Assembly: GCF_003334305.1 (NCBI RefSeq)
Contig: NZ_QOWS01000010.1
Length of the DNA stretch: 64,000 nucleotides
DNA from: Escherichia coli
GTDB taxonomy: Bacteria > Pseudomonadota > Gammaproteobacteria > Enterobacterales > Enterobacteriaceae
Direction: 5' to 3' (one strand)
Made by a program: the position numbers and the translations under genes
Shown here: positions 52,967 through 54,911 of the stretch, in pieces
How the letters are laid out: each line of letters begins with the position of its first letter
How positions within the stretch are numbered: position 1 is the stretch's first letter
Notes under the pieces: generated by a model
What the model was told of the DNA's origin: nothing
Database searches by the model: none
The model's input: only the letters and a program-made list of their open reading frames with translations

Positions 52967-53875
52967 TTACTCTTGTGGCCATAACCACGCAGCGCCGCGT
53001 ACGCCGCTGGAATCACCGTGCTTCGCCTTACGCACCGGCGTTTCACATTCGCCGCCGAAGACAAATTGTTTAATCAACTGCCCAACCGTTTGATATAAAC
53101 GGTCTACATTGCTCATCCCGCCCCCCAGGACAATCACATCCGGATCGAGAATATTCACGACATGTGCCAGCGATTTTGCCAGCCGCAGCTCGTAGCGACG
53201 CAATGCCAGTTCCGCTACCGGATCGCTTTCTTCAACCAGGCGGATAATTTCACTGCCTTTCAGCGCATGTCCGCTCAAACGACGATAATCCGTCGCGAAT
53301 CCCGTGCCCGAAATAAAGGTTTCAATACAACCTTGTTTACCGCAATAACAAGGGACTTCCTCGCGATAACGCAGTTCGTCTTCGTCCATCCACGGTAGCG
53401 GATTGTGTCCCCACTCACCTGCCGTGCCATTGCCGCCGATATGCGCCCGCCCATTGAATGCCACGCCCGCGCCGCATCCCGTGCCGATAATCACGGCAAA
53501 TACTGTCTGCGCTCCCGCTGCCGCGCCATCTACTGCTTCTGAAACCGCCAGACAGTTGGCGTCATTTGCCAGCCGCACTTCCCGCTGCAACCTCGCGCTT
53601 AAGTCTTTATCGAATGGCTGACCGTTGAGCCAGGTTGAATTGGCATTCTTCACCACACCGGTGTAAGGCGAAATTGAGCCAGGAATGCCCATACCTACCG
53701 TTCCGCGCTGCCCTGTCGCCTGCTCCGCCATATCAACCAACGTGGCGATCGTTTCAATAGTTTGCCGGTAATCATCACGCGGCGTGGGCAGACGATGGCG
53801 GTACAACTGCTCCCCTGCATCGCCCAGTGCAATCACTTCAGTTTTGGTGCCGCCTAAATCGATACCTATACGCAC
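52967..53875 (-). CDS. mak: Fructokinase / manno(fructo)kinase (ROK family)
   Basis: GTG start with strong SD (TAAGGAGAGTACC-GTG) giving [14 protein letters not shown]... (302 aa); ORF-track frame extends 46 codons upstream. Confidence 0.9.
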
Positions 53876-53999
53876 GGTACTCTCCTTATTTTTTTCAATA
53901 TCAATAGCGTAGAGACGGACAACCGGATTGGCAATGCAAGGCCGCCGACAATTCGTTATCATGCCCGCTAAATTTAACGACAAGGCCGTGGAAATTATC

Positions 54000-54911
54000 A
54001 TGCTGTGGTTCAAAAATTTAATGGTTTACCGTCTTAGCCGCGAGATTTCGCTGCGTGCAGAAGAGATGGAAAAACAGCTAGCCTCGATGGCATTTACCCC
54101 ATGCGGCAGCCAGGACATGGCGAAGATGGGCTGGGTTCCTCCGATGGGATCGCACAGCGATGCGTTAACGCACGTTGCCAATGGTCAAATTGTTATCTGC
54201 GCACGCAAAGAAGAAAAAATCCTCCCGTCTCCGGTGATTAAACAGGCGCTGGAAGCGAAAATCGCCAAACTGGAAGCGGAACAGGCGCGTAAGCTGAAGA
54301 AAACCGAAAAAGATTCGCTGAAAGACGAAGTGCTGCACTCTCTGCTGCCGCGAGCTTTCAGCCGTTTTAGCCAGACAATGATGTGGATCGACACGGTTAA
54401 TGGTTTGATTATGGTGGACTGCGCCAGCGCCAAAAAAGCGGAAGATACGCTGGCATTACTGCGTAAAAGCCTGGGGTCGTTACCTGTTGTACCATTGAGC
54501 ATGGAAAACCCGATTGAACTGACGCTAACCGAATGGGTTCGCTCCGGTAGCGCAGCACAGGGCTTCCAGTTGCTTGATGAAGCCGAGCTGAAATCGTTGC
54601 TGGAAGATGGCGGCGTGATCCGCGCGAAGAAACAAGATCTGACCAGCGAAGAGATCACCAATCACATCGAAGCCGGAAAAGTGGTGACTAAACTGGCGCT
54701 CGACTGGCAGCAGCGCATTCAGTTTGTGATGTGCGACGATGGTTCGCTCAAGCGTCTGAAGTTCTGCGACGAGCTGCGCGATCAAAACGAAGATATCGAC
54801 CGTGAAGATTTCGCCCAGCGTTTTGATGCCGATTTCATCCTGATGACTGGTGAACTGGCAGCGTTAATTCAAAACCTGATTGAAGGATTAGGTGGCGAAG
54901 CACAACGTTAA
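54000..54911 (+). CDS. rdgC: Recombination-associated protein RdgC
   Basis: Start at [48 protein letters not shown] (303 aa) within the 327-aa frame. Confidence 0.93.

Follow-up and report, generated by a model that had tools for sequence, protein, structure and literature searches.

Where does translation of mak begin? In the window, by which we mean the whole 64,000-nucleotide stretch of E. coli DNA analysed here, the araJ-mak-rdgC region lies around positions 52967-54013, and it holds a minus-strand open reading frame of 348 aa (54013..52967) that opens with TTG at 54013..54011 and closes with TAA at 52969..52967. A GTG within this frame, at 53875..53873, gives a protein of 302 aa instead. 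An earlier note on this DNA had placed the start of mak at the GTG, behind a strong Shine-Dalgarno (SD) sequence, and had pointed to an upstream in-frame extension of 46 codons that remains open. Its description of the locus proved accurate throughout. We conclude, with a probability of roughly 0.96, that mak begins at GTG 53875 and that the 46 codons upstream are non-coding and hold the mak promoter together with the rdgC control region. The GTG start is already known and is correctly annotated in current reference genomes, and it brings no new biology; the relevance of the case is one of annotation hygiene only, as versions of 331, 344 and 348 aa persist beside the correct 302-aa Mak.

Reading frame and ribosome binding site

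The features of the reading frame and its surroundings are as follows.

52967..53875, minus strand: mak (yajF, b0394) coding sequence; GTG start, 302 aa plus TAA; annotated by PGAP in strain A7 and in MG1655, and matched by NF007108 and Pfam ROK
53873..53875, minus strand: mak GTG initiation codon; start codon in 80 of 80 orthologous loci, aligned with the native Met1 of NagK
53882..53887, minus strand: SD sequence AAGGAG, read from the sequence; -9.3 kcal/mol; SD-like motif in 79 of 79 loci
53876..54013, minus strand: 46-codon in-frame extension, probably non-coding, judging by the lack of a family match, the substitution pattern, the spacer phases and stops in orthologues
54000..54911, plus strand: coding sequence of the divergent neighbour rdgC (annotation); its first 14 nt are antisense to the start of the long frame

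Counted from the GTG, the coding sequence has 909 nt (302 codons and the stop), and from TTG 54013 to the GTG there are exactly 46 codons in frame (138 nt), so that both the length of the extension and the contrast between a 348-aa frame and a 302-aa protein are as they had been described. Upstream of TTG 54013 the frame stays open for four codons more, up to a TAA at 54028..54026. The minus strand reads into the mak start as ...GAAAAAAATAAGGAGAGTACC GTG CGT ATA GGT ATC GAT..., and the sequence before the GTG is TAAGGAGAGTACC. The SD sequence is separated from the GTG by 6 nt. This is the arrangement of canonical SD-led initiation at a non-ATG start, with the codon 5-9 nt after a conserved sequence complementary to the 16S rRNA 3' end. 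The energy of the anti-SD duplex at the mak GTG (-9.3 kcal/mol) compares with a mean of -2.6 and a 5th percentile of -7.2 for 17-nt windows across the region, confirming that the SD is strong. The extension contains four alternative in-frame starts (TTG 54013, ATG 54001, TTG 53983 and ATG 53962; NC_000913.3 410006, 410018, 410036 and 410057), none of which has an SD, their anti-SD energies ranging from +1.2 to -3.1.

The alternative to a 302-aa product is an N-terminally extended Mak of 331, 344 or 348 aa, made instead of the shorter protein or alongside it and translated from a longer mRNA with its 5' end within rdgC or past it. The frame is indeed open and offers ATGs at 54001 and 53962, E. 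albertii and Leclercia share these starts in the same frame, and gene callers have yielded all three longer versions. Against this stands, in the first place, the lack of an SD at the upstream starts. Further evidence on the extended protein comes from its sequence family, from orthologues and from the mapped transcript, and is given below.

The earlier note had proposed N-terminal proteomics as a check. After trypsin or ArgC-type cleavage the N-terminal peptide of canonical Mak would be Met-Arg only, and proteomics with such cleavage is therefore ill suited to Mak. Among the listed rows of the TRAINSPOTTER tables there was no Mak entry.

Boundaries of the protein family

The mak product is, by its sequence, a ROK-family fructokinase / manno(fructo)kinase. 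It scored 610-611 bits against the NCBIfam fructokinase equivalog NF007108 (303 positions; curated cut-off 443 bits), and positions 2-302 of this model align with residues 47-347 of the long frame, that is, with residues 1-301 of the 302-aa protein. The Pfam ROK profile (PF00480) matched residues 49-347 of the long frame over model positions 2-293 of 294 (E = 2.1e-102). The ROK motifs are present as well: the ATP-binding DxGxT motif as DLGGT at residues 6-10 of the 302-aa protein and, downstream of it, the zinc-binding CxCGxxGCxE motif, both of which align with NagK structures. In those structures the native Met1 aligns with V47 of the long frame, which is encoded by the GTG codon, and the DxGGT strand follows directly. 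A profile search with the 46-aa extension alone returned zero family matches. Both observations count against an extended Mak, as the extension matches no family and ROK kinases open directly with the DxGGT beta-strand.

Kinetics of Mak have been reported (PMC10519446); according to the same paper the expression of Mak is constitutive, with about 279 copies in each cell on glucose (Ribo-seq, Li 2014).

Start codon and SD across Enterobacterales

We scanned Enterobacterales with one genome per species and obtained 80 orthologous loci, the genera ranging from Escherichia to Serratia, Pantoea and Erwinia. All 80 match the Mak query from residue 1. The codon aligned with the mak start is GTG in 73 loci, ATG in four and TTG in three, and in no locus is it a non-start codon; the Arg and Ile codons adjoining it vary synonymously. 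A GAGG/AGGA motif resembling an SD was found in each of the 79 loci examined for it. The GTG start with a strong SD, as the earlier note had it, is thus both annotated and conserved.

The upstream frame behaves differently from the start itself. In the same 79 loci its in-frame open length has a median of 9 codons; 41 of them have an in-frame stop among the first 10 codons upstream, 14 already among the first 2, and in 35 the aligned codon is the sole in-frame start after the upstream stop. Stops interrupt the extension frame in most genera. Several close genera (Escherichia, Leclercia, Enterobacter and some Citrobacter) keep the frame open over 39-67 codons, and among these openness alone is therefore non-discriminating.

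Evolution of the upstream stretch

The 124 nt between mak and rdgC fall entirely within the extension, which also takes in, antisense, the first 14 nt of rdgC. Among orthologues the mak-rdgC spacer varies in length from 87 to 249 nt, with 32, 21 and 24 cases in phases 0, 1 and 2, respectively. Since all three phases are present, indels in the spacer are not limited to multiples of three. Leclercia, whose spacer is equally 124 nt long, allowed a comparison by codon position: substitutions in the spacer fall 11:6:9 on the three positions and change 41% of the amino acids, as against 28:18:161 and 10% in the mak coding sequence. In phase, third-position bias and stops the stretch thus does not behave like the coding part of an N-terminally extended isoform, and it evolves as non-coding DNA. 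An extended Mak is hard to reconcile with a segment that has no codon-position bias, changes 41% of its amino acids and carries stops or phase shifts in most genera. The open frame is no more than chance, as 8.9% of 20,000 dinucleotide-preserving shuffles left it open across the 124-nt spacer.

At two related loci the spacer (53876-53999) has diverged far less than the synonymous sites of mak: its divergence is 0.8%, against 9.1% in the mak coding sequence, in a divergent E. coli, and 4.1%, against 11.2%, in E. albertii. Such high conservation suggests either dense regulatory constraint or recent recombination, to judge from these comparisons.

Conservation of this kind could also be read as the mark of a separate regulatory uORF or leader peptide, encoded by the upstream open frame and modulating expression of mak or rdgC. 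All that speaks for it is the open frame together with the low divergence of the spacer in Escherichia (0.8-4.1% versus 9-11% in the coding sequence). The frame, however, enters the mak start without a stop and hence does not form an ORF of its own; an SD is lacking; and conservation follows promoter-like blocks, with hexamers flanking a variable 17-nt spacer, and not codons. A search of the mak-rdgC spacer against Rfam found no family. We regard a leader peptide as the least probable of the readings considered here, with hardly any chance of being right.

Transcription start, promoter and leader of mak

The elements found on the mak strand inside the extension are the following.

53876..53899, minus strand: mak 5' UTR, 24 nt, A-rich (AUUGAAAAAAAUAAGGAGAGUACC); the transcription start site (TSS) is the A at 53899 (Cappable-seq)
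53906..53911, minus strand: putative mak -10, TACGCT, 3/6 to consensus; ends 7 nt before the TSS and is conserved across genera
53929..53934, minus strand: putative mak -35, TTGCCA, 5/6 to consensus; TTGnnn-N17-TAnnnT arrangement in orthologues

We take the offset from U00096.2 to U00096.3 to be +776, by which a TSS at U00096.2 409344 corresponds to NC_000913.3 410120 and to window 53899; this placement of the mak TSS rests on one dataset and on an offset that was checked for plausibility only. With +776, and not with 775 or 777, the mak TSS and two neighbouring TSSs fall on purines about 7 nt past -10-like hexamers. The dataset is the Cappable-seq map of Ettwiller et al., in which 409344 is a plus-strand TSS and the only one on that strand among those listed from 407822 to 415586 (PMC4782308). 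From position 53899 to the GTG there are 24 nt, and each of the four upstream in-frame starts lies 5' of this position. The mapped mRNA is therefore unable to encode the extension, and this is a stronger argument against the extension than the SD alone. Supplements of ROSE (PMC10301672) and SMRT-Cappable-seq (PMC6131387) have no entries for mak or rdgC.

TTGCCA and TACGCT, 17 nt apart and with the TSS 7 nt past the latter, have the layout of a sigma-70 promoter, and we infer that these are the hexamers that form the mak promoter. The -35 lies in a mak-strand block, GCATTGCCA/GCATTGCTA, that is conserved in the spacer alignment. The 17 nt between the hexamers are free to vary in sequence and fixed in length, and the -10 reads TACGCT, TACTCT or TACTGT across genera, followed by the SD. 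Of 80 sequences compared (the window and 79 orthologous loci), 46 have a TTGnnn-N17-TAnnnT arrangement 30-34 nt upstream of the start codon. A consensus promoter scan did not call the mak promoter, its -10 matching only 3/6. No special structure was detected in the leader (z = 0.2).

A stretch of about 33 nt that includes the E. coli mak -10 and TSS is missing in several Citrobacter, Pluralibacter and related genomes; nine loci with a spacer of 91-93 nt lack it. The mak promoter must therefore be arranged differently there, implying promoter turnover.

The TSS weighs against an extended Mak in two ways: it lies downstream of every start that such a protein could use, and no other plus-strand TSS appears among those listed nearby. 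Both an extended Mak and a leader peptide are contradicted by the missing SDs, the position of the TSS and the non-coding substitution pattern, and we consider the extended protein very unlikely. Transcripts other than the mapped one presumably do not run through the region. Where the frame is open with the same ATG/TTG codons in phase, as in Escherichia and a few close genera, a minor extended Mak with a lineage-restricted function might arise from a rare read-through or condition-specific transcript coming from the rdgC side, which we judge no more credible than extended Mak in general.

Initiation at GTG 53875 would then proceed as follows. Sigma-70 RNA polymerase would start at 53899 from a weak promoter inside the extension, producing a 24-nt unstructured leader that would offer the strong SD AAGGAG; the SD would set the 30S subunit on GTG 53875, giving the 302-aa ROK kinase. 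The 46 upstream codons would stay untranslated, being the back-to-back mak/rdgC control region, the rdgC 5' UTR and rdgC antisense, and the extension frame would be stop-free by chance.

Retention of the non-ATG start of mak is strong: 73 of 80 species-level lineages have GTG, despite saturation of the neighbouring synonymous sites. Retention of GTG together with the weak -10 would fit long-term selection for low Mak expression.

The rdgC side and other neighbours

The extension had been said to overlap the promoter and 5' end of rdgC divergently, and this is borne out by the rdgC ATG at 54000 (plus strand) and by the spacer alignment. In 77 of 81 sequences (the window and 76 of the 80 orthologous loci) the N-terminus of rdgC is encoded upstream of mak in divergent orientation. 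A candidate rdgC -10, TATCAT, is at 53957-53962 (plus strand), where genera have only TATCAT, TATTAT or TACTAT, and the candidate rdgC -35 (53934-53939) would lie immediately next to the mak -35, in opposite orientation. From this -10 the rdgC TSS is predicted near 53969-53970; none was found for rdgC among the listed Cappable-seq entries. The one promoter-like site that the consensus scan called on the plus strand, TTAACG-16-TATCAT at 53974..54001, was rejected as a chance match, its -10 overlapping the rdgC ATG and the count of such sites equalling the shuffle expectation.

Both neighbours of mak also have open frames longer than their annotated genes. The rdgC ORF opens at TTG 53928 (327 aa; 53928-54911, plus strand), while the annotated ATG at 54000 gives 303 aa, and the araJ ORF opens at TTG 51556 (422 aa; 51556-52824, plus strand), with the annotated start at 51640. 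In the spacer the rdgC and mak extensions overlap antisense.

Between araJ and mak lie two REP/BIME-type palindromes, imperfect inverted repeats at 52839-52883 and 52908-52980, with sub-threshold matches to Rfam naRNA4 (33 and 39 bits; gathering score 59.5). The final 14 nt of the mak coding sequence lie within the second palindrome. Downstream of mak no intrinsic terminator was predicted. In strain FDAARGOS_1370 the araJ-mak spacer contains a remnant of IS1397 (positions 479-1365 of locus L084). Beyond rdgC (positions 3690-4111 of locus L001, about 54989-55410 of the window) the annotation has a small protein gene of 84 nt (ykiD in MG1655), which overlaps the DUF2773 pseudogene ykiA at its end; the listed Cappable-seq TSSs include NC_000913.3 408574 and 408598, just upstream of ykiA.

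Deposited versions and the old numbering

PGAP annotates mak in strain A7 at window 52967..53875 with the GTG start, and strain A7 is 100% identical to the window across 52800-54300. In MG1655 the gene is at 410144..411052 (NP_414928.2), again with GTG; the protein record is at version 2, implying an earlier revision. By exact-sequence look-up the 302-aa Mak occurs in at least 1000 contigs, the 331-aa versions in 71 and the 348-aa version in 2. A 344-aa version is deposited under the label 'unknown [E. coli K-12 MG1655]'. All four lengths (302, 331, 344 and 348 aa) are present among deposited proteins, which bears out the earlier remark that the choice of start affects annotation. In a clustering of proteins at 90% identity, the cluster containing Mak has as its representative the 452-aa PlaP (putrescine/proton symporter) and includes several PlaP members, evidently a clustering artefact.

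The longer numbering also touches on a known mutation. Sproul et al. in 2001 reportedly gave yajF a length of 344 aa and took its Mak+ allele to be A24D (GCC to GAC). Codon 24 of the 344-aa frame reads GCC, at 53932..53930, and a C-to-A change at 53931 (NC_000913.3 410088) would turn the mak -35 TTGCCA into the consensus TTGACA. This C-to-A at 53931 is probably the activating Mak+ base change that Sproul 2001 and Miller & Raines 2005 reportedly described. The old 'missense' A24D is then naturally explained as a -35 up mutation, which the 344-aa numbering misplaces as a missense change. With a promoter-up point mutation in the 5' region of mak, a glucokinase-deficient strain regains growth on glucose, as PMC10519446 cites from Miller & Raines 2005.

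Comparison with known systems

The mak of the window is the same gene as E. coli K-12 Mak/YajF (b0394, NP_414928.2, UniProt MAK_ECOLI, manno(fructo)kinase). The 165 nt leading up to the start, with the start itself included, are identical to MG1655, as are the rdgC and araJ neighbours, the GTG and the length of 302 aa; the coding sequence differs from that of K-12 by five nucleotides and one residue (T195 in the window, M195 in K-12). NagK (N-acetylglucosamine kinase, ROK; PDB 2ap1, 4db3 and 7p7i) aligns with Mak over its full length (E about 1e-58). In both proteins the N-terminus opens with an M-x-x-G-x-D-x-GGTK strand, and CxCGxxGCxE is common to both. NagK is, however, a different equivalog: its model scores Mak at 268 bits (cut-off 380), whereas the fructokinase model scores it at 611 (cut-off 443).

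Longest-ORF over-extension is a known artefact of bacterial annotation, and mak shares with it a stop-free in-frame intergenic stretch before a non-ATG start, having likewise been called long by several pipelines (331, 344 and 348 aa). As a worked example, mak illustrates how a promoter and a mapped TSS within a supposed extension settle the question of the start site. No feature distinguishes mak from other longest-ORF over-extensions, and in RefSeq and MG1655 it has already been corrected.
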